A DNA stretch of 64,000 nucleotides from contig OZ038378.1 in NCBI GenBank assembly GCA_964036045.1, forward strand, positions 195,486,001 through 195,550,000. The letters are read 5' to 3'. The notes beneath the pieces are model-generated. The model saw only the letters and a program-made list of their open reading frames with translations, did no database searches and had not been told where the DNA came from. Below are positions 4,282 to 59,660 of this stretch, one piece after another. The stretch comes from Eutreptiella sp. 'Long Island Sound 2002' (lineage: Eukaryota > Protista > Euglenida). Position numbers and translations under genes: made by a program. Position 1 is the stretch's first letter; the number at the start of each line of letters is the position of its first letter.

Positions 4282-47570
<43,289 letters not shown>

Positions 47571-49720
47571 CCTCACGGGCTTGATCTAGCCAAGACGTAC
47601 CATGCCGTCATCCCGAGACGGTCTGCAGCGGGGCTATGCTAGACAGCCATACCCATCACCCCCGGGTCCATCCTCCCACCCCCATTCGTGGAAGATGGAC
47701 CACCTCCCGCCCCCACGGAAGGAGGTCTCCCAGGGTCTACAGTGGGACATGCTCTTGAGGCAAGGGTGATATAAGGGCGTTTGGAAGGGGTGTGCTTGGG
47801 GACTCTTGAGGGGGAACTTGGTCTAAAAAGTAGCGCGCAGTGCGCGTGCAGTACAAGCCCCCCCCCCCCCCCCAAGTCGAAAACGGAGGTTGCTGTGGAT
47901 TCCCTCATGCAAGCAACGTTGCCCCCCAGTCTAGATGAGGGTGAGGTGGTCACATGCATGGCTTTGGGACTTGCTAGTAGGGTGAGTGAGCTTTCAATTG
48001 AACAAAAAAAAGGATATGTGTGTGGCTTTCCGCATTTTGCATGATGTCTTATACAAAGGGAAGGTTGCTTGCATTTGTCTTGGGCTAGGGTAGTTTGGGT
48101 GACCTGAATTTAGGGGCATTTGGGTAGGTGGGGTGGCCTAATTTTGAGGGGGTCGGTACGGGGGTTCTTCACAGGGGAATCTAGTCTAAAAGTAGTGCGC
48201 AGGGTAAGGGCGCCCCCTTTGTTTTTGGTAGCAATGACACCATGTGATACTTTCATCTATTGGCCGAGTCCCAACTAATTGGTGGCCACGGAGGGTCCTT
48301 GGTGCTTTGTGGACTCGGTGTCCCATCGTTAAGGTAGCTATGGGGTGCCGTACGGAACTGGCAATTGTACATATTGCGCATGTGTCGCAAAAGTTGCATT
48401 TCTTTCAATTTTTCAATTTTTTTAATAATGTACACAACTTACCGCAAAAAAAGTTACGCGGGTTTACCACAAAAAAAATTTTACCGCAAAGAGAAAATTA
48501 CACGCATTTACCGCAAAAAAAAATTACACCCCTTGACAATTTTTTTCTATACGAGTTACATTTTTCACTACCTAAACAAAAGGAAGGGCAGTGTTTTAAA
48601 TTTTCATTGGTATGGCGGGGCTAAAAGGTTGGGAGGGGCTATTCTTCCGGGTAAACTGGCTATTTTAGCACCCTAGGTAGGATACTATCAACAATGATGG
48701 CATACCCCAATTTAGTCATTATCAGCGCTCTGAAGGGGCAAATGCAGATTGAAAACCGTCCAAGTTACTTCTAAAACATGTTTTTTTTTTGGCTTCCCAA
48801 GCCCAAAATAGGGGACGCTAGTGACACCCGAACATGGTCACGTGACACTTCATTGCTTTGCCCGGAAGTGACGACTTATATTACCATGTGTCGCGTGCAT
48901 GAATGAGAATGAAAGAGCAGATGGCCTGGAGTAGACGGCACAGTGTGTGAGCCCAAAGCTCTCTATTGGTGGTGGTGCCGGGGTGTTGCCGGCACAGCAG
49001 CCGAGTGGTCTGCAGCAGTGTTCTTGCCTGTGTGTTGTTGCCCTGCCTGCTGTGGGTGTGGTGTCTAGGAGTTGGGGGGGGGGGGGGCGTGCTGGGGCCT
49101 AGGTCAAAGCAGCAAGTGCCAAGCCTATGAGGAGTGGGAAACAATTTAAACCAATTTAAGCATGTTTCTTTGTGCTTCCCTGTCCCAAAATAGGGGGTCT
49201 TTACCCCACCCCAAAGCGCAAACTATGGTTTGGGTAGGGGGGGGTATAAGGCACACACACACACACACACACACGCGCGCCGCGGTAGGGGTGCATGAAC
49301 TGTACATAGTCTTGCTGTCGTGCTGAGAGGGAGGAAAGGCCGCTGGATGTGGGAAGGAAACATTGCTGCAAGTGTGAACAGAGCTGTAGAAGTGGGGTGT
49401 CATAGCGAACGCTATCGATTTGTTTCAATGATTGGGTGTCACACACACATATATGTCTGAGAACATCCCGTTTGCTTGCAAATGGGGGTTGCACTGGTGT
49501 GCATTAAGAACAGAGGTCCTTTTGTATTCCAGAATTTTGATTTTTGTGAGGTGGGCTCGGCCCCTTGTTGTTGTTTTATCTCCCGGACGCTCTGGCAAGC
49601 TTCGAGCTTTTTGAGTGTTTGGTTGCTTCCACTGACGTTGAGAGCCTCATCGAATTTGAGGCTGACTGTAACATCTCCAACGACCAACTTGCCAGAGCTG
49701 TACACCAACATAACCAAAAT

Positions 49721-50716
49721 ATGGGAGACAACGGGGGACCGAGTTCCGCTGCGCGTGCCAATAAGCGTCCGGCTGAGTCTGAGCCGGATGCTGCGGCCCT
49801 ATGCGCTTTTGCAGAGCACGCGTTCGGGCTATGGAAGTCGCGGGTGCCTGGAGAAGTTCTTGGCCGCAAGGTGGCAGCCCTCACGATGAGGATGACGGCG
49901 CACGGATATAATGCGCCCCAACTGGCGGATCAGATGAAGAAGGAGCTGCGGCTGAACATCGACCTCGGGGACGTGATGGACCTGGTCGTGGCGTGGGAGG
50001 ACGTCAACGGAGTGGAGTACGATCCCGGGCAGAAAAGGTTCAAGCAGGCGCAGACCGCGGCGGCTGCTGCGACCTCGGGCCTGAAGGTCAAGCAGGAGAG
50101 TACGGAGTGGCTGGAGATGAAGACGAGAATGGAGTCGTTGGAAAGAGAGCTAGCTCAAGCACAGGCGGCGAAAGAGTCCTCCTCGCGGCGAGTACCCTGG
50201 GGAGAGAGGCCCCTGACTGAGGAAACCATTGACGCATTCTTGCGCGAAGAGGAAGGGGTGACTGAGTGGATGCAGGAGGCCCTAGACCTGGTAAAAATTG
50301 CCATATCTGACATGGGCGAAGACAGCGTGTCAGCGGTCCCAGCTGTGGACCTCTGGCGTTTGGTGACCAGGAGCCAGCATAAATACACCAAGAAATACAA
50401 GAGAGCCAGGTATGGCTGGGGTGGAAAGGGCCGCGGCAAAGAGAAATCCGGGAGAAGGAAATCTTCCCCCAAGGGGAAAGGCAAGAAGCACAAGAAGGCC
50501 AGGAGACGGTCGGATACGTCTACTTCGGGATCATCCAGCGGCAGCTCTTCGGGCCCCGAGTATTTTTGGCGGGGTAAGCATAAGTTTATTGTGAGGAATG
50601 GGGTGGAGTTCTATGTCGCGTCGAACGGCCGTGAGTGGCGCAGTGACCGGCCCCCGCCTGGGGACTGTGATATCTGCGGGGGCCGGCACTGGGAATGGAA
50701 CTGCCGCCGAAAATGA
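49721..50716 (+). CDS. ORF1, gag-like 331 aa: coiled coil, Lys/Arg-rich basic tract, C-terminal zinc knuckle
   Basis: First ATG at 49721 (frame open from 49565); KGRGKEKSGRRKSSPKGKGKKHKKARRR; PPPGDCDICGGRHWEWNC is C-x2-C-x3-H-x4-C. Confidence 0.8.
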   Translation: MGDNGGPSSAARANKRPAESEPDAAALCAFAEHAFGLWKSRVPGEVLGRKVAALTMRMTAHGYNAPQLADQMKKELRLNIDLGDVMDLVVAWEDVNGVEYDPGQKRFKQAQTAAAAATSGLKVKQESTEWLEMKTRMESLERELAQAQAAKESSSRRVPWGERPLTEETIDAFLREEEGVTEWMQEALDLVKIAISDMGEDSVSAVPAVDLWRLVTRSQHKYTKKYKRARYGWGGKGRGKEKSGRRKSSPKGKGKKHKKARRRSDTSTSGSSSGSSSGPEYFWRGKHKFIVRNGVEFYVASNGREWRSDRPPPGDCDICGGRHWEWNCRRK

Positions 50717-50775
50717 CAGGGGCGTGGACCAGATGATGGGGGTGCAGAGCAGGGCCCTCAACACATCGTGGTCCG
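50714..50775 (+). promoter_or_regulatory. Putative stop-codon readthrough cassette: UGA-C, 8-9 nt spacer, hairpin
   Basis: GGACCA 50726-31 pairs with TGGTCC 50769-74; GATG 50732-35 with CATC 50764-67; TGGGGGT 50737-43 with GCCCTCA 50754-60. Confidence 0.55.
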
Positions 50776-52006
50776 GGCCGATGAGGCCGGTTTCACAGAC
50801 TGGCATATTAAATACCTGCAATTCCAGGAGGATGCGGAAGAGGGCGGATGGCAAGGATTCATGCTGGAGTCTTGGGCGGTATCCACCCGGGAATGCTACG
50901 AACGTCACATCAGAACCATGCGTGGAGCACATGAAGAGAGCCCAGACCAAACACCCACTGAGATCCTCCGCGAGTACCTCATCTCCATGTACCGCCAACA
51001 CAAGACCTCCAGCTCCATGCGGCAGGCCATCTCAGCATGCAGATTATTGGAAGAGTTGGAAGTGGCCCCTGCCTTCGTCCCACGCAGTTTTTGGAGATTT
51101 ATTAGGGCGAAGGATAAAGTCAGCAAAACGAGACGACAGAGATGGGCGTCGCTGGGAACGTTGGAGGTCATGGCAGGACAAGCCACCACGGAGGAGGAAA
51201 TGTTGTGCGTCTGCATCGCGACCCTGTCCCTCGCGTTTTGCCTGAGGGTTGGCGAGGCAGCATCGATACGGCCCAAGGATTTGGACCAGCAGAACGGATA
51301 CGTCACCTTTTACGACAGCAAAACGCGACGGGCATGGGTATCACGGCCGGCAAGTGAGTACGTACGGAGGGTCATGGGGCTGGCGCGACTCTTGGCAATG
51401 CGAAGAGGACGGGATGTCGCGGGGCCGCTCATCAAGGGAGGAGCCGCGAGGCTGCAGCACATCATGGCCAAATTGCTCATGGGGACAGAACACGCGGACA
51501 TGCGGTGGCATGCGTGGCGGAGGGCTGGCGCCACCCTCCTGGTGCGGTCGGGGGCAACGATCCTGGAGGTCATGTCCTGGGCCAGGTGGAGGTCAGTCAA
51601 GGTCGCACGGCGATACGTGGCGACATGGGAGGATCTACCATGGGAAGAAACCAGACTACCACAGCCTACGCATGTGCCCGGTACCGCGGTATGGTTCTTC
51701 AAGGTGGCGGACACCAAGGCGACCAACCTCTGGCCGAAGTCGATTGGAACCCTCGATCATGGAGACGGATGGTCGTCAGAGTCTGAGGCCGAGAAAACCC
51801 GATCGGCACTCCGAGAGGAGATCACTGCGAAGCCTATCCAGAGACCGGAACAGCCCAAACGGGACAGGGCAGCGGCAGAGTCCGCGGCCAGGAAGCCCGT
51901 CAAGAAGCGACGAGTCGTGGTCGCCAGGACGGTCACCGCGTCCGAGCTTGCAGCGAGGGCGCGTAGATGCGCGGTACGGGCAGGGGCTGGGGTCGTCGTT
52001 CGATGA
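50717..52006 (+). CDS. Tyrosine recombinase (phage-integrase fold), in frame with ORF1; first in-frame ATG at 50861
   Basis: Catalytic set intact: FCLRVGEA (R), YDSKT (K), WHAWRRAGA (H-x-x-R), ARWRS (W), ARRYV (Y). The N-terminal LESWAVSTRECY is typical of DIRS-type core-binding domains. C-terminal PVKKRR resembles an NLS. Confidence 0.92.
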   Translation, partial: QGRGPDDGGAEQGPQHIVVRADEAGFTDWHIKYLQFQEDAEEGGWQGFMLESWAVSTRECYERHIRTMRGAHEESPDQTPTEILREYLISMYRQHKTSSSMRQAISACRLLEELEVAPAFVPRSFWRFIRAKDKVSKTRRQRWASLGTLEVMAGQATTEEEMLCVCIATLSLAFCLRVGEAASIRPKDLDQQNGYVTFYDSKTRRAWVSRPASEYVRRVMGLARLLAMRRGRDVAGPLIKGGAARLQHIMAKLLMGTEHADMRWHAWRRAGATLLVRSGATILEVMSWARWRSVKVARRYVATWEDLPWEETRLPQPTHVPGTAVWFFKVADTKATNLWPKSIGTLDHGDGWSSESEAEKTRSALREEITAKPIQRPEQPKRDRAAAESAARKPVKKRRVVVARTVTASELAARARRCAVRAGAGVVVR

Positions 52007-53169
52007 CACCTGTTCTATGCGACCCAGGCCCTTGCCACGTTCAGAGTTTCGGTATTCGAGGTCTGAGCTTTGGCGACAGTGTCGTCGAATTCGATTGCCC
52101 CCGCACATGACTTTTCAGAGCCTCTGGACCCCAGTTTTTTGGATTTTCCGAATTTTTATAAATCTCTCCACGACACCCACCAGGGGTCGGTTAGGGCTTT
52201 TGGTTTTGTTGGTGCATGCGCTGAACGCACTGCGTTTTTCTGAATTTCTCTGGACCGAGGGGGAGGGGGGTCCTTGGTCCTCTAGAGTGGTTTTGATGGT
52301 TTTTGGTCCGGGGCGCAAAAATATCGTTCCAAGGGGGTGGGGGGGTATGTGTATATTTTTTGGAAAGCCCTTGAAAATGGCTTTCATTTTCCAAAAGTTT
52401 CAGGGTTCTGCTCACCGGTTTGATGGAGAAATTACTTCGAGACTGATTTTTTCAGGTTTTTTTGGGCCTAGTTTATGCGCTGCACTGCACTATATTACAC
52501 TACACCACGTACCATCACCCATTGTTGCCCCTGCCCAAACCCCTTCTCTTTGCTCTTTTCAAGAGACCACACCCAATGTCAAAGCGTACCAAAACTGCCC
52601 CAACCACCCTCCCTAAACGGCAAAGGGTGGCGATGGGTGTCAACCTCCGCGACCTCGCCGAGTCGATGTCGGTTGCAGACATTGCTACTGATTTTGCCGC
52701 TCTACATGCAAGAACGCCCAAATTTTTGGACTTTGGGAAGCTTGTAAAGTTTGCGAGAAGCCAACCAATGCTTCCCAAGACTCCGAATGTGCTTCCCAAG
52801 CATCCAATTTGTCAGACATGTCGGACGAGTCAATGTTTGCCCATCGTCCACATGCCTTGTTTGCTTGCAGTCTCTCAAGAGCGAAATTGTCAGCAGTTTT
52901 GTGAGTTTTTCTCAAAAATATGGTCACCTACCCCCCAACCCAACCCTACATTTCCAAAAAGCCCTTTCCAAGGCGATTTCAAAAAGGTATAACATACCAA
53001 CCCCCCCCCCCCCCTTCGGGACACGTAGCAGCGGCAGAAAGCCAACACCGGCAAAAAAAAATCAAAACCATCAATGACCCCCCCCCCCAGGTTTATATAT
53101 GGGTGTTGAGTTGCGGGGGGGGGGGGGGGGCTAGCACCATTTTGCTGTTTGCCACTGTGGCGTAAAATT

Positions 53170-56100
53170 GGTGCCACGTGGGTTTGGGTATATGTAGCCG
53201 GATGGCTGGATCAAACAGTTGACGGTCAAGATCTCTTCGAGCTAGTTGGAGTCTGAGCGCCCTACACCACCACTCCGGTCGAAGACATTGAGAGTGGTAA
53301 AGTGGATTTGATGGACTACCAGGTCGCAGGTCCAGGTGAGATAGTGGAGCTTGAGCGCCGAGCAACATGGACCCTATTGGAGCCAATCCTTCCGCAGTTG
53401 GTGGCCCATCAGATCAAGACAGGTTGCTAGGTACTCAAGGAGCGCCTCCGACGTTGAGAGAAGTCCGAATTTAATTTAATCGATTTGTTTCTGTTGCAAC
53501 GAGATGAACTTTGTGACCGGAATTGCAGGGAATGGGAGGAGAATCATGTCAGGAATGCGACCATCCAAGTCTCAAATGTCACTGCGAGGGAGGAATACAA
53601 GCATCTAGGGATCCCTGTCGGGGGTTTCGAACCGGACATTGATCGAATGTTGCCAAGTACCATACGTGACCGTGTGCCATCAGCTTGGCAATCCCGAAGC
53701 GACCGGTATGATCTGCTAAATCCACTCAGAAGAGGAGAGACAGCCAGATTCGTCTCACTCGCCAAAGGTAATGCCCGGGGCACCCAAATGGGAGTTGCAT
53801 CGGCGCAGGAAGTGACCATCTCACTCCCTCTTTGCTGCGCCACCAAAGCGCTAAGAGGGTTCCCCCGCAACAGTCCACAGTGCCCAAGGAGAGCAAACAT
53901 TGCATGCCAAGAAGGTCATTATCGTCCAGATCCCAGTCATGTTGGTTCAACAGCCCTTGGAAAGGCCGGAGAAGGTAGGGGTGATGTAACCATATTGATG
54001 TCTCCCCACCATGGGGACCCCGAGAGGGCTGACGGGTTGAATCCTTTCAACCATTGTCCCCATTTTCCATTCTTTATGACACATTTCACAGACCCCATGC
54101 CCATCAGTTCCATTGGTGGCATATGGAGTACTGATTTGTGGAATCCTAAGTATGCTTCGCATGTTCCCAAGGTAGCGGTTGCCGTTGATATGTTTGGCAA
54201 CATTGTACGGATTTGCCCCCTGACCCCGGGACATCTGTGGATGTCTTGATTTGGAATGGGTATGAACCGTCTCGTACCCGCGGTGATTTCTTTGGTTTTG
54301 AGGTTGGGGGCCATGACGGCGCTTATAAACACCACATTCATGTTATTGTGCCATTCATTGGAACAAAGAATGGAACTTTGACAGCCCGGCAACAATTGTA
54401 CAATCATGTGCATGGGTGGCATGGGGCACACATTGAGCATTTCTTTGGACAAGTGTGGCATTGGGGTTTGGTTAGGAACATCTGGCGTGGCAGCTTTGAT
54501 GATGTCTTGGCACAGGGTTTGTTGTTGTGGAAACATCCCGAAATGGCCCTTGCATTGCGAAAGACTTAGCGTGACATCTTGCGCCTTCATGTTGTGCGGT
54601 GAGAAAAATTGAACGGTACCACAATGGCTAGCAGAAGAAGCCCTTGGGTCACTTCAGTTTACTCATCCTCAGTTAGCATGTTGCTTGGATGAAAAGGTGC
54701 GTTGTGTGCTCGTTTCATCCTTCACGCCACAATATGTTACACGGAGGCCAAACACTATTCAAATTTGTACAAAACCTTGGTCCCTTGTATCACCTTGTTG
54801 GGATTTGAGATGAAGCAAATGCTAAAAGGTGGAGAAAGACACCTATGACCTGTTTGATGAAATTGTGCTCTTTGGAACATCCCTCGAACTTTCCAACATG
54901 GCGCTTGCCGATGGTCTTTGGGTGTAGCGTTGCAAGCACCCCTTCATTTTGCGTTTCTCGTACCATGTGTACTGAGCACTTAAACTCTCCCATGCTATGG
55001 GCACCTCGTGAGCAATGTGTTATTTACATCAACGAAGGGCCTGGCGGAAGGCGAAAATGTCCCCCTTGGACCAACTTGCGACAAAGCCAACCATGGTCAT
55101 TGGACGCTATGTTTCATGCCCTATTTCGCGCCGTGTTACATTTGCAAAACATGACACAGCACAACACAACACAACACAACACACTGTGGTTGTGGCAGGC
55201 CCCACCACCTGCATGGAGTGTACAGTACATAGAGGTTCTGCGCCCCCATTGGGCTCTCCCTCTGTGGAGAACTGCCTTACCCGCATCCCACCCATTGGTT
55301 AAGCTGACTTTACTGTACATACCTCTAGGCCGTTGCTGCCTAAGTACACTGTCTGCCTTGATGGCCGAACTCACCACTGTCGGAAGAAAAAAAAAACACA
55401 CAACACAACACAACACAACACAATTCGACAACACAACACCCTTGGTAAACATTTGGAAGGAAATCAATATCTTGTTGTTTAGGCATCTCTCAAGCTATCT
55501 AATAAGCATAGATAGTGGGGGGGGGGGGTTTGCCCGACACGCTACTTTTGTATTACTATCCCGACTTTAACCCCAGATTTACCCTGCCCTAGAAGAGCCC
55601 CCCAAATCCACCAAGAGTGGACGGCAAACCTTCCCTACAAAGCACAGTGCATAAGTTGAAATAGCTGAGTTTAACATCAATGTGTGTTACTCATGTATCG
55701 GCTAATAAACAATCTTTTCCCCACAAGTGTGGGCAGCAATACATTCATCACAATAATGCTCCTGGCACTCACCACAACCTGTGATAGTGGTGCGCTTCTA
55801 ACAACACAAGGCACACACATCTGCCTCATCCTCTCCTTCATCTTGCGTGGCAGTGGTGTTGTTGTTATCAGTCCAAACATGAGGCGGGGCATGGTCCCAT
55901 GGACCATAAGGAAGGTGACGGACCTGCCTCCGAATGCAAAATTGTGTGAAATGCAACAAAACACGCACGGACTGGTGCAAGCTCCGTTTGCTGAGTTGTG
56001 GGTGCGCATTGTGCACGATGTGCTTCGCCAATGCCGCACGGGATTGCTTCTGGGTTGTTGTTTCGAAGGGCTGCTTGAAAAATCTTTCTTGAGCCCTACC
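53170..56100 (-). mobile_element. Decayed non-LTR retrotransposon (RT to RNase H to C-terminal region)
   Basis: Minus-strand relics: APLSQVVVSARSIIVMNVLLPTL (about 55700-55810) resembles RT GCPLSP...NIVMEVLL, and an RNase H-like ILW..G.NE stretch lies near 54720. Many stops and frameshifts. Confidence 0.5.
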
Positions 56101-56244
56101 AGTTGAGGTGTGCGGTGAATTTTGTAAAGCCTCATCAGGTAACCAGGCCTTTAACAACCGAATTGCCTGATTGCTATGCTCTTGGGAGCTACACATGTTC
56201 CCATTGTTGGCTTGTAATACGCACATTGATTGAATACAATCTGA

Positions 56245-56272
56245 TTTACCCATTTTGCCTTCCTGCTCTTAG
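56245..56272 (+). promoter_or_regulatory. Polypyrimidine tract and AG acceptor upstream of trmB (candidate SL trans-splice site)
   Basis: CCCATTTTGCCTTCCTGCTCTTAG ends at 56272, 22 nt before ATG 56295. Confidence 0.5.
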
Positions 56273-56294
56273 GTCTCATTGTTTTTTTCAACCC

Positions 56295-57743
56295 ATGTTC
56301 GCTAGTCGCACTAGCTATTTCTTGCCCATCGATTTCCAATGCCCTCGTCAAGAGGAACAACCTCGGTGCCTCCCTATGAAGCTCCTCGCAGTTGTGGTCA
56401 GCGCAATAGTTCTTTGTGTGCTCCATCTGCAACACGCACCAGCATCTCCCATCAATGTACAAACAACAAACGTTGCTGCTCATCACGCGCCGCATATCGT
56501 CACCGAAGCGCGACCCCATTCACTGTCTCACGTCAGGATCGCTCAATGTGGAGCCACTCGTCCGCGTGGTTGTGCGCTGTCTCGTGCTCGCGCTAGTTTT
56601 TCTCCAACTGGCACTCCACTGCGAAAGGCAACGCCCTGGCCTTTGGAAGTCAATCCTGTCCGTCCCCGATGGGTAAATATATTTGTTTGGACGTGCATTG
56701 TTGCTTGCATGGTGAAATGCTTGCAGCCGAAGAGGCGCGATCGCAGGCGCTCATGGCAACTACCAATGGATGCTTCCAAGCCCCCTTGGAGCCTACATGC
56801 GACTGGATATGCGAACGCGAGGGTACCAATGTCGCTTCAGTCCAACAACCACACCACCATGTGGATGAGATTCAAGCATTGTTGCGCGATGCAATTGCTC
56901 GTAAACGACCCTTCACATCCTTGTGATTCCGTCGAAGAGTCCTACCAACGAAGTGGGATGGATGCGCTGTGCGATTGCTCCGGGAACGCACATGTATGGC
57001 AGATGTGCTCGTCTAGCGCTGACTCGACCCGGGACCCCATTAGGTCCAAGTCCTCCCGCAAAAAGCTCCTTAAGAAGCCCGGTTGGTACAAGCGGCTCCA
57101 TCACCAACTCACACCTGCGCAACGCCGATCATGCGCCACATTGCTACCACTCTACCGCCTCCCGTTGAGTTATGGATCCGGTGGCCCCAAGCCGTTGGAT
57201 TTTGCGCAAGCTTTCGGCCGGAATGGTCCACAAGAGGTCACACTTGACGTCGGGTGTGGGCACGGGGACTCGTTGGTGGCCATGGCGCAAGAGAACCCGC
57301 ATGGCTGCTTCATCGGGACCGAGTGGCATAAGGCTAGTGTTGGCTCCACTCTGCAGAAGATCCACGACCTCCAACTAAGTAATTGCCGCGTTGTTTACAT
57401 GGAATTCACCAAGTTCCTCGACCACGTCCCTGACGGGGGCCTCACTAATGTGTGCATATTTTTCCCGGACCCGTGGTTGAAGGAGGTGGACGTCGAGAGG
57501 CGGGTGGTGCGATCGGACACTGTGGCTGCCCTAGCGCAAAAACTGAGACCCGAAGGGGTGCTCCGCATAGCAACGGACGTAGATGACTACCGGGATTGGG
57601 TTGTGCAGACCATGGGCAATTCTAGCGCCGACTGGATGGTCGGGGATCCAAAAACGATGGCACGCAGCTTTGTGACGCTCTATGAGCAGCGAGCTTGGAA
57701 TGAGGGCCGCGAAGTGCACGAATTGTTGTACATACGGCGATGA
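56295..57743 (+). CDS. trmB: tRNA (guanine-N7)-methyltransferase TrmB with euglenid class I plastid-targeting presequence, apparently single-exon (482 aa)
   Basis: LTPAQRR..LLP.Y...LDF...FG; DVGCGHG (SAM motif I); FIGTEWH; FFPDPWLK; LRIATDVDDY; TLYEQRA. The N-terminus has hydrophobic segment 1 (LLAVVVSAIVLCVL), an S/T/R/P-rich spacer, hydrophobic segment 2 (WVNIFVWTCIVACMV) and then basic KRRDRRR. Confidence 0.9.
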   Translation: MFASRTSYFLPIDFQCPRQEEQPRCLPMKLLAVVVSAIVLCVLHLQHAPASPINVQTTNVAAHHAPHIVTEARPHSLSHVRIAQCGATRPRGCALSRARASFSPTGTPLRKATPWPLEVNPVRPRWVNIFVWTCIVACMVKCLQPKRRDRRRSWQLPMDASKPPWSLHATGYANARVPMSLQSNNHTTMWMRFKHCCAMQLLVNDPSHPCDSVEESYQRSGMDALCDCSGNAHVWQMCSSSADSTRDPIRSKSSRKKLLKKPGWYKRLHHQLTPAQRRSCATLLPLYRLPLSYGSGGPKPLDFAQAFGRNGPQEVTLDVGCGHGDSLVAMAQENPHGCFIGTEWHKASVGSTLQKIHDLQLSNCRVVYMEFTKFLDHVPDGGLTNVCIFFPDPWLKEVDVERRVVRSDTVAALAQKLRPEGVLRIATDVDDYRDWVVQTMGNSSADWMVGDPKTMARSFVTLYEQRAWNEGREVHELLYIRR

Positions 57744-57795: not shown

Positions 57796-59660
57796 CTGTT
57801 TTCTCAATGACACTTTTCTTTCAGAGGCCTACGAGCCGTTTTGTAGGAAGTCCTGTACTGGACACTGGAATTGGGTGTTCTGTGCAGTAGAACATGCGTT
57901 TCTGTCCGGAGAATAGTGTTATATTGACGTTTGTTGGGGTGTTCAATGAGGGGTCGTTTGGCCACTGGTGTTCTGGTCGTGCATTCCCCCGCGTGCGAAA
58001 CACATGACCGTGTCTCGCTCCAATACCATCCTCAGTGCACACTTCAGAGCCCGTGTCACTCAGTGCACACTTACTCAGTGCCCACAGAATTTCAGCCTGA
58101 CAACATTGCCCCTACAAATGACCTTGATCCACAAAACCAGCTTACACAAAAGTCTTGGCACTGGACACTGCCTGTAACCCCCATCTTACGGTCGCACAGC
58201 CTTGTCATCCGCTTCACCACTGGTGAACATGCGCCTGCCACTGGGATGATGCTGATGGGGACGAATACATCCGCTGGAGGTACATTCACAAGGGGCCTGG
58301 GATTGCGCCTGATGCTCCCATTTGAGCAAGTCTTATTCCCCATCGCCATCACCCTCTGAGGTCATCAACATGCAGTGTGTTGCCCCCGCCATGGGCCAGC
58401 CCGGCCCTACCCGCCACCCTGCCCATTGGTGGAACCTTGGCGCCACCAAGGCGGGTATCCCCTGCTGCATCAACCACAAAAAGTGTGATATTACAACTCG
58501 AGAGTGTCTGGAGCTGCCCCCTGGTTGCCTGTGCCCAATTGCCCAGCCAACACACAGAATTGGACCCTTTTTTCGCGCCAAACACATAACAACTGCTGCT
58601 GCCACCTCAGCCCTACCGGTGTTCCCACCGGAAAAGTGGAGCACAGGGTCCACTTGGGCAGAGGGTCTCCGAAGCATGGGCTGCAATTTTCGATGACAAG
58701 TTGTGCAGCCATGAGGGAAGCATTTTGCCCCAATGAGGGTGCCTCAGCGCACCGCGCGCGCACACCGCGCGCACCGCGCGCTGAGGCAGACGCGTCACTT
58801 ACCGGTGAAATGCACACCTTTTTCAGACAGGTGTTTTGTGAAATGCTACAGTAAAATGTTTGGTTCCCACTGCAATGTTTGGTTCCCAATGCTTTGTTTT
58901 CAAGCGGTTTCAAAATGTTTGGCTTCCACTGCAATGTTTGTTTCCCAATGCTTTGTTTTGAAACGGTCTCAAAATGTTTGGAGGCAAAACATAATCACAC
59001 CGATATTTTCTAATGCACAAGGTGCCCTGCTGCCCACTTCTACACCTGGACATTGATATTTCCACCCAAACACAACAATTGGCCACCTAGTTGTCATACT
59101 AAGGCCCCTATGACCGCTTTTTGGCAACATTCTATGGTACCGCCGTTCTAAGTCAACCGGGCTACAGTCGCACCGCGCGCGCGCACCGCGCGCGAGGCAC
59201 CCTCAATGGCGTAGAATGTAGCAAATCAGAGGGCACAGATTTGGATCCCATTGTGACTCTGGTATTCATTGTATGACTCTAACCTGCTCACATCGATGAC
59301 TCATTTTTTGCATCGCATTCTGGGAAGGATCACAAAGTACATATGGGTGGAAGTGTACCTGTTCGTACATTGTTCTGGGTCTGGGTTCCACCCCATGCTA
59401 CTATACAATGGGTGAGTGCATGCCGGGAGGTTAGGGGGGGGGTTCATGCATCATGGTTGGTGTAGTTCCTGACCTGGTGGGTCTACCCCTGGCCTGTTTT
59501 TGGGTTTGTCCTGCCTGGCATAATATATGGGTGGGTCAGTGGCCGTGGCCTGGTGGTCTGGGCTTCCTGAATTGTGGCTGGGGGGTCGAGTGTGGTTTCG
59601 GCGTTGTTAGTGGTGGTTTTTTGGGTGGCTGTCCTGTTTGCTGAGTTTGGCTTAGTTTTC
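57796..59660. mobile_element. Dispersed repeat copy 2 (homologous to 46033-47440), interrupted by a MITE
   Basis: Colinear with copy 1 on both sides of 58735-59204. Confidence 0.9.
58735..59204. mobile_element. MITE, 470 bp, TIR GAGGGTGCCTC, 3-bp TSD AAT
   Basis: AAT at 58732-34 and 59205-07; the empty site CCCCAATGGCG is present in the paralogous copy at 46970-46980; subterminal GCACCGCGCGC repeats. Confidence 0.92.

Follow-up and report, generated by a model that had tools for sequence, protein, structure and literature searches.

How does a transposable element make its recombinase when the recombinase frame lies directly behind the stop codon of another protein? The question is raised by an element in a 64,000-nucleotide stretch of Eutreptiella DNA (the window), for which a preliminary description had claimed that a Gag-like frame ends at one UGA and stays open through a tyrosine recombinase (YR). 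Reading the sequence confirms this layout. ORF1 (49721..50716; this and the other features of the element lie on the forward strand) encodes 331 aa and terminates AAA TGA, and the same frame stays open to 52006 as ORF2 (50717..52006), 429 codons that encode a Cre-like YR and end at TGA 52004-06.

The Gag-like frame and the recombinase frame

The first in-frame ATG of ORF2 is at 50861 (codon 49), leaving 48 codons without an ATG after the stop, as had been stated; gene callers start ORF2 at GTG 50768, inside the stem of a predicted hairpin. The stop and the C that follows it (50714..50717, context AAA TGA CAG GGG CG) form a candidate readthrough site, and an 8-nt spacer (CAGGGGCG, 50717..50724), the last part of which is able to pair as a basal extension of the stem, leads into the hairpin. 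A start-stop overlap (ATGA) at the junction yields a 7-codon ORF only, and Rfam, SECIS included, gave no match in the element or the window. The shared frame across the TGA is directly visible; the Gag-YR that had been called 'fused' would be its predicted product.

ORF1 consists of a helical N-terminal part, a basic and Ser-rich tract, and a C-terminal zinc-knuckle-type motif (CDICGGRHWEWNC, 50666..50704). The knuckle reported earlier is present, with the spacing CX2CX3HX4C and not that of the CX2CX4HX4C CH-box; in Gag relatives 35-40% identical, the ORF ends 0-12 residues after it. ORF1 had no significant Pfam match and no usable match in an Atlas search. Its structural model has a pLDDT of 45 overall and about 79-87 in the C-terminal domain, and a fold search with it found generic helical bundles only (best Z 5.8). 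By its position, its CX2CX3HX4C knuckle and its basic tract, we regard ORF1 as Gag-like. A T-rich stretch upstream (49531..49720) is the likely 5' leader, with a possible trans-splice acceptor near 49531-49550; the left boundary of the element is provisional. Within the leader (49565-49720), 7 full-length database copies extend the Gag frame upstream by 52 further open codons to a TTG, and this extension contains no ATG.

Around the element, self-comparison of the window found no terminal repeats and no empty site. A 17-nt inverted repeat (16/17), which may be chance, links 49703-49719, just 5' of the Gag ATG, with 52198-52214 in the 3' flank. Contig depth at 49300-49500 and 52296-52402 is far above that of the element, and these flanks are probably high-copy repeats. 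Elsewhere, the window holds a tandem array with a 149-bp period (1-2775), a DnaJ-domain piece (25504-26286, PF00226), a duplication (46033-47440 and 57796-59659, 96% identical, the second copy carrying an insert of 465 bp), and an uninterrupted tRNA m7G methyltransferase-like ORF that ends in TGA (56079-57743, PF02390 E 1.8e-36).

ORF2 matches Pfam PF00589 (E 3.5e-7), and its model (pLDDT 89, built from a 65-sequence alignment) resembles Cre (Foldseek E 1.3e-8; Z 16.9, rmsd 3.9, 261 aligned). R177, K202, H265, R268, W291 and Y300 are all in place, and the recombinase is thus predicted to be catalytically intact, as claimed; the roles of these residues are assigned by analogy with their Cre counterparts. 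Ahead of the first ATG, ORF2 codons 26-42 (50792..50842) encode a conserved helix that falls in the Cre N-terminal helix region in most structural alignments, which mostly begin at ORF2 residues 21-34 and in some cases at 44-45. The helix is kept in at least 5 families (predicted pLDDT about 81-90), and at least 5 families have a Trp-led amphipathic segment ~24 residues before a conserved W-x-x-S-T motif; several have no Met at the position of ATG 50861. Judged by its conservation, the stretch between the stop and the first ATG is coding. A start at ATG 50861, which the preliminary description had set against its own reading, would drop this confidently predicted helix and give a clipped YR.

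The stop, the hairpin and the +1 frame in other copies

If the TGA were a lesion of this copy, other copies should have a sense codon in its place. We analysed copies through database proteins and sequencing-run contigs. Sixteen YR proteins and 18 Gag proteins make up the two clusters, and the matches listed include 15 of each; there is one entry per large ENA contig, probably from a single assembly. All 12 Gag entries that reach the knuckle, among the 15 listed, end in CRRK (11/11 without the identical copy), and the remaining 3 are N-terminal fragments. Of the 15 YR entries listed, 14 begin at GTG 50768, the earliest start available behind the stop. One Gag and one YR among those listed match the window exactly and probably come from this very copy. 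Variants were scanned on 50660-50830 in 20 contigs from 4 runs, representing at most 3 samples and 2 studies. Positions 50711-50720 carry zero substitutions, and there is no indel among the 20 contigs, assemblies of a kind that drops rare variants. The stop is covered by 8 contigs, 6 of them with at least 31 bases per side; one contig matches the window exactly and may be where its sequence comes from. Across YR residues 49-320, copies differ at 3-4% only. With the TGA present family-wide in the Gag copies listed (12/12), the single conserved in-frame TGA-C is a family trait and not a copy-specific nonsense mutation.

The picture from distant families is mixed, and there the identity of the TGA appears firmer than the frame link. 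The distant proteins that cross the junction are three degenerate singletons. P0197 runs from knuckle to YR in a single frame, with Ser at the stop position. In P0087 the knuckle is read in the -1 frame, which forces a TGA followed by C; in P0091 it is read in +1, with a TGA followed by C or T, the stop position being borrowed from P0074. These two families are 35-39% identical. Both enter the YR after an out-of-frame knuckle, so that an in-frame model needs one indel in each; taken at face value, they have the YR in a different frame from Gag. AAA precedes the stop in this element, AAC in the P0074/P0091 family. A related-locus search for DNA of the distant families was empty in metagenomes and, for Gag, in viral contigs, and for the YR returned one weak, unrelated-looking locus. 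Searches with the knuckle pattern gave 120 and 5 loci, zero of which match any stored protein. Among YR proteins of 834-2380 aa we found P0060 alone, a YR-RT frameshift product, and a search without length restriction, which also takes in the 752-833 aa range lying between the length windows, contained no full Gag-YR fusion protein among the best 150 of 293. P0163, a Gag relative, lies on a JGI/IMG contig of 1.1 kb, so the family reaches beyond the ENA assembly.

The hairpin predicted behind the stop spans 50721..50779, with a 19-pair main stem (50725-50775) and 3 basal pairs (50721-23/50777-79). The stable stem described earlier is therefore present, with 19 predicted pairs where 17-18 had been claimed. 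Shuffling gives it a z-score of -2.9 over 101 nt (1/200 shuffles equally stable) and, when the folded segment is cut tightly, of -4.4 to -5.0 (0/500 shuffles equally stable); it ranks 3rd of 149 windows over the element, after 49751-49810 and 50636-50695. The latter is a second strong hairpin (50636..50695, z -4.8) that spans the knuckle codons and ends ~18 nt 5' of the TGA. The former, directly 3' of the Gag ATG, has a z-score of -5.2 and is stronger than the hairpin behind the stop.

The lower 7 stem pairs are invariant among the run contigs. One contig carries a two-sided compensatory change, G-C to C-G at 50721/50779, which is a single event; the contig has 16 differences, 12 of them listed, and the probability of such a change by chance is 0.002 counting 3 contig-private changes and 0.04 counting all 12 listed. 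The other stem variants comprise 2 one-sided changes that still pair, 4 at unpaired sites and 3 that break pairs. When variants are sorted by matching depth into putative haplotypes, the commonest disrupts the upper pair 50741-50756, one of the three broken. The hairpin is largely kept, with the three broken pairs as exceptions.

A third frame overlaps the junction. ORF3 (50595..52170, +1 frame) opens 5' of the Gag stop and overlaps the knuckle, the stop and the whole YR, with one stop at 51243-45. Across the YR, the +1 frame has 1 stop vs 12.1 expected (0/2000 synonymous codon shuffles), and the Gag control has 14 vs 15.4 expected. ORF3 has its own ATG at 50733, which is invariant. Its similarity to a relative stops near 52170, with the frame open up to 52616, and over 51819-52169 it is similar to the P0088 tail. 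In a related family (P0060), the YR tail shifts to the +1 frame (99% compatible) and continues into a reverse transcriptase (RT; PF00078 E 1.7e-11; Atlas neighbours RVT_1 and hepadnavirus P). When relatives match off frame, the match falls in +1 in 17 of 18 cases, several of them weak. ORF3, we infer, forms the long leader of an RT ORF and is interrupted and truncated in this copy; RT would then have to be supplied by another copy. RT was not found in the window by tblastn with P0060 or by Pfam on 71 of 147 long frames, and RT homology was not detected in the ORF3 stub; a homology between the stub and the pre-RT part of P0060, suspected by eye, gained no support from the comparison. The two-product model proposed earlier (Gag and Gag-YR) is right about the layout and omits the overlapping ORF3 and the RT-less window.

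Readthrough and its rivals

Since Gag and YR share a frame, separated by a single conserved UGA with a predicted hairpin behind it, ribosomes are likely to read through occasionally, and the YR is, we judge, probably made as a minor Gag-YR fusion via UGA readthrough. Most ribosomes would terminate at the UGA and yield the Gag-like protein of 331 aa; a few per cent would insert an amino acid there, under the predicted stimulation of the downstream hairpin, and continue to a Gag-YR of ~761 aa. Such rare readthrough would set a low YR-to-Gag ratio, and may carry the YR into the particle. UGA-C with a stem 8-9 nt downstream is an established readthrough signal, as is an upstream AA, in the available parts of two papers (PMC3159437, PMC10085805). 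Readthrough would explain why the frame and the TGA are kept, the sequence context of the TGA, and a helix that precedes the first ATG. Against it, the commonest haplotype and two more variants break stem pairs, and two stronger hairpins lie elsewhere; the frames of the distant families are 0 (P0197), -1 (P0087) and +1 (P0091), each in a single degenerate copy; and in VIPER sequences read by eye from part of a published set the stop precedes A, not C, with a TGA-ATG in T. cruzi that also fits re-initiation. The Tca2 junction between gag and pol has a UGA and a predicted pseudoknot, and in yeast reporters it failed to direct readthrough (available part of PMC2194720). The hairpin also lies inside ORF3, and could serve ORF3 expression instead.

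The YR might also come from its own mRNA (by trans-splicing or an internal promoter) or from re-initiation, with a start at GTG 50768 or ATG 50861, which we think unlikely. The gene callers' choice of GTG 50768 in 14 of the 15 listed copies keeps the conserved helix, T. cruzi VIPER has an ATG immediately after the TGA (by eye, in the sequences consulted), and Tca2 has a minor promoter at its junction (available part of PMC2194720). Against these precedents, GTG 50768 sits inside the stem and ATG 50861 drops helix 26-42, with five out-of-frame ATGs between the stop and 50861; the AG sites there are mostly purine-rich upstream (0.2-0.55 pyrimidine vs up to 0.65 in the leader). A separate start also leaves the kept TGA and the kept frame unexplained.

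Rated just below this is a wider scheme, in which the UGA and the hairpin would act as a three-way switch: termination would give Gag, readthrough Gag-YR and a +1 slip Gag-RT. Readthrough would then be an old and so far unreported property of VIPER-like elements, those of trypanosomatids included, where RT would be reached via a -1 slip just upstream. A slightly fainter prospect again is a shifty stop as the main role of the hairpin, with ribosomes slow at the UGA slipping +1 at AAA-UGA into ORF3, and the YR made by readthrough at the same site or by another route. Such +1 shifts at an A-site UGA are known for antizyme and RF2 (available part of PMC5009743), and the +1 frame looks coding: 1 stop vs 12.1 expected, open from 50595 and thus before the stop, favoured by 17 of the 18 off-frame relative matches (several weak), and entered by the YR tail of P0060 on its way into RT. 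Against it, the AAA of this element is replaced by AAC in the P0074/P0091 family, and a shift could fall anywhere in 50595-50716; ORF3 also has its own invariant ATG 50733, is broken in this copy, and leaves a stub without detected RT homology.

Removal of the stop by splicing strikes us as very unlikely. The intron would be a nonconventional one starting at TGA-CAG, or a GT-AG or nonconventional one starting upstream. Euglena nonconventional introns follow the pattern N3-CDG ... CH'G-N5-6 and then a purine, as given in the available part of PMC12501133, and TGA-CAG fits their N3-CAG donor; CAG 50717-19 has a pairing probability of about 0.5 with CTG 50816-18, and loss of the 111 nt at 50714-50824 would keep the frame. 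Both candidates that keep the knuckle (ends 50824 and 50872) nevertheless start the next exon with a pyrimidine, which is disfavoured in that source, so that we found no in-frame Euglena-type intron that keeps the knuckle; both also remove the conserved helix, every other candidate intron removes the knuckle, and CAG is not next to the stops of the VIPER copies consulted.

It is highly improbable that the host decodes the UGA as selenocysteine or tryptophan: transposon selenoproteins exist (available part of PMC8557442), but TGG encodes Trp in 26/26 cases, TGA serves as the stop of both ORF2 and the methyltransferase ORF next to it, and the stop position is not a conserved Cys. Equally improbable, and largely refuted, is a nonsense mutation in a once-fused Gag-YR spread by an amplifying dead lineage, for which fused gag-YR ORFs in TATE (tables of PMC6681497) and the sense codon in P0197 speak, and against which stand a stop in every family copy seen, Gag ends right after the knuckle in families 35-40% identical, and the 3-4% divergence of YR residues 49-320.

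Comparison with known systems

Readthrough between gag and pol is known already. Like gammaretroviruses, Tj1/Tosmo/Tcry1 and Tca2, as presented in the available parts of PMC3159437, PMC10085805 and PMC2194720, the element has one in-frame stop after gag and a structure ~8 nt downstream, and its AA-TGA-C context is that of the fission-yeast elements (PMC10085805, in part). Unlike gag-pol readthrough elements, it has the YR alone behind the stop, not Pol, and a third ORF overlapping the site. It shares UGA-C, an 8-9 nt spacer and a stem-loop with alphavirus and furovirus readthrough (PMC3159437, in part), and differs from it in having a predicted local hairpin of 19-22 pairs with a short loop, in a nuclear transposon.

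Our literature searches returned no description of gag-to-YR readthrough, though Lorenzi 2006, Goodwin and Poulter 2004, Poulter and Butler 2015, Gao 2003 or supplements may mention it. There were 0 term matches in the available text of PMC3266345 and none in that of PMC8547959, PMC5633606 and PMC12440569, and 'DIRS' and 'VIPER' had 0 matches in the first 300,000 characters of PMC5009743. The DIRS and VIPER papers searched do not address expression of the downstream overlapping ORFs of YR retrotransposons, and the junction offers a short, exact signal that is open to testing. If readthrough holds, what is rationed is a recombinase instead of Pol, and the recombinase is tethered to Gag; a natural UGA readthrough signal would also be gained from a poorly studied protist lineage.

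Cryptons are YR-only DNA transposons with short terminal repeats. Like a Crypton (mentioned in PMC6681497), this copy has a YR and no RT; what separates it from a Crypton is the knuckle-bearing Gag-like ORF, the overlapping +1 ORF, and the RT of a relative. These extra ORFs place it outside the Cryptons.

The closer comparison is with the VIPER-like elements (VIPER and TATE, order DIRS), which have the order gag-like ORF, YR, RT/RH (PMC6681497, in part). The terms 'readthrough', 'read-through' and 'stop codon' are absent from the main text of that paper. Its tables, in the portion consulted, place ORF1 of T. cruzi VIPER at 1-1341 and ORF2 from 1342, and include two single-ORF copies of TATE and one with gag and YR fused. 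In its Additional file 10, likewise in part, we read by eye 6 VIPER copies of five lineages (B. saltans 1, C. fasciculata 3, T. cruzi 2). All 6 have gag-TGA-YR in frame with no further stop, and the base after the stop is A in 6/6, with an ATG directly following the TGA in T. cruzi; one C. fasciculata gag is frameshifted upstream. The earlier statement that such elements carry the YR only as a separate or overlapping ORF was therefore too narrow, given the fused and single-ORF TATE copies tabulated and the in-frame VIPER layout. The gag-TGA-YR layout seems unremarked in the published VIPER sequences consulted, and kinetoplastids are tractable. By eye, five of five VIPER lineages in these sequences also have a slippery-type heptamer (A AAA AAC, G GGA AAC, A AAA AAA) 7-14 codons 5' of the gag TGA, a possible -1 route to the overlapping RT ORF.

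Several features set the present copy apart. RT/RNase H, which in VIPER and TATE overlaps or follows the YR, was not found in it; the +1 ORF here is open, and RT is present in a related family. Nor did 48500-54000 contain split direct repeats (A1 ... B1 A2 B2); the copy may be truncated. Because RT and split repeats were looked for and not found in this copy, we do not file it as a member of VIPER. Unlike VIPER, it has ORF3 in the +1 frame, X3 spacing in its knuckle, and TGA-C with a long hairpin in place of TGA-A with an upstream slippery-type heptamer (VIPER sequences in part). The YR ORF directly follows gag, as in VIPER-like elements. Their ORF1 is gag-like and often has a CH box; ORF1 here agrees in position, CX2CX3HX4C motif and basic tract, but its model is of low confidence and Pfam gave no match. 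As in VIPER and TATE, the order is gag-like ORF, YR and overlapping third ORF, with a knuckle at the end of ORF1, and the RT of the related family P0060 scores with RVT_1 and hepadnavirus-P-like clusters; as in the VIPER copies read by eye, a W-x-x-S-T motif stands at the start of the YR and an in-frame TGA between gag and YR. We describe the element as a copy of a multicopy, VIPER-like YR element, one that works like VIPER.
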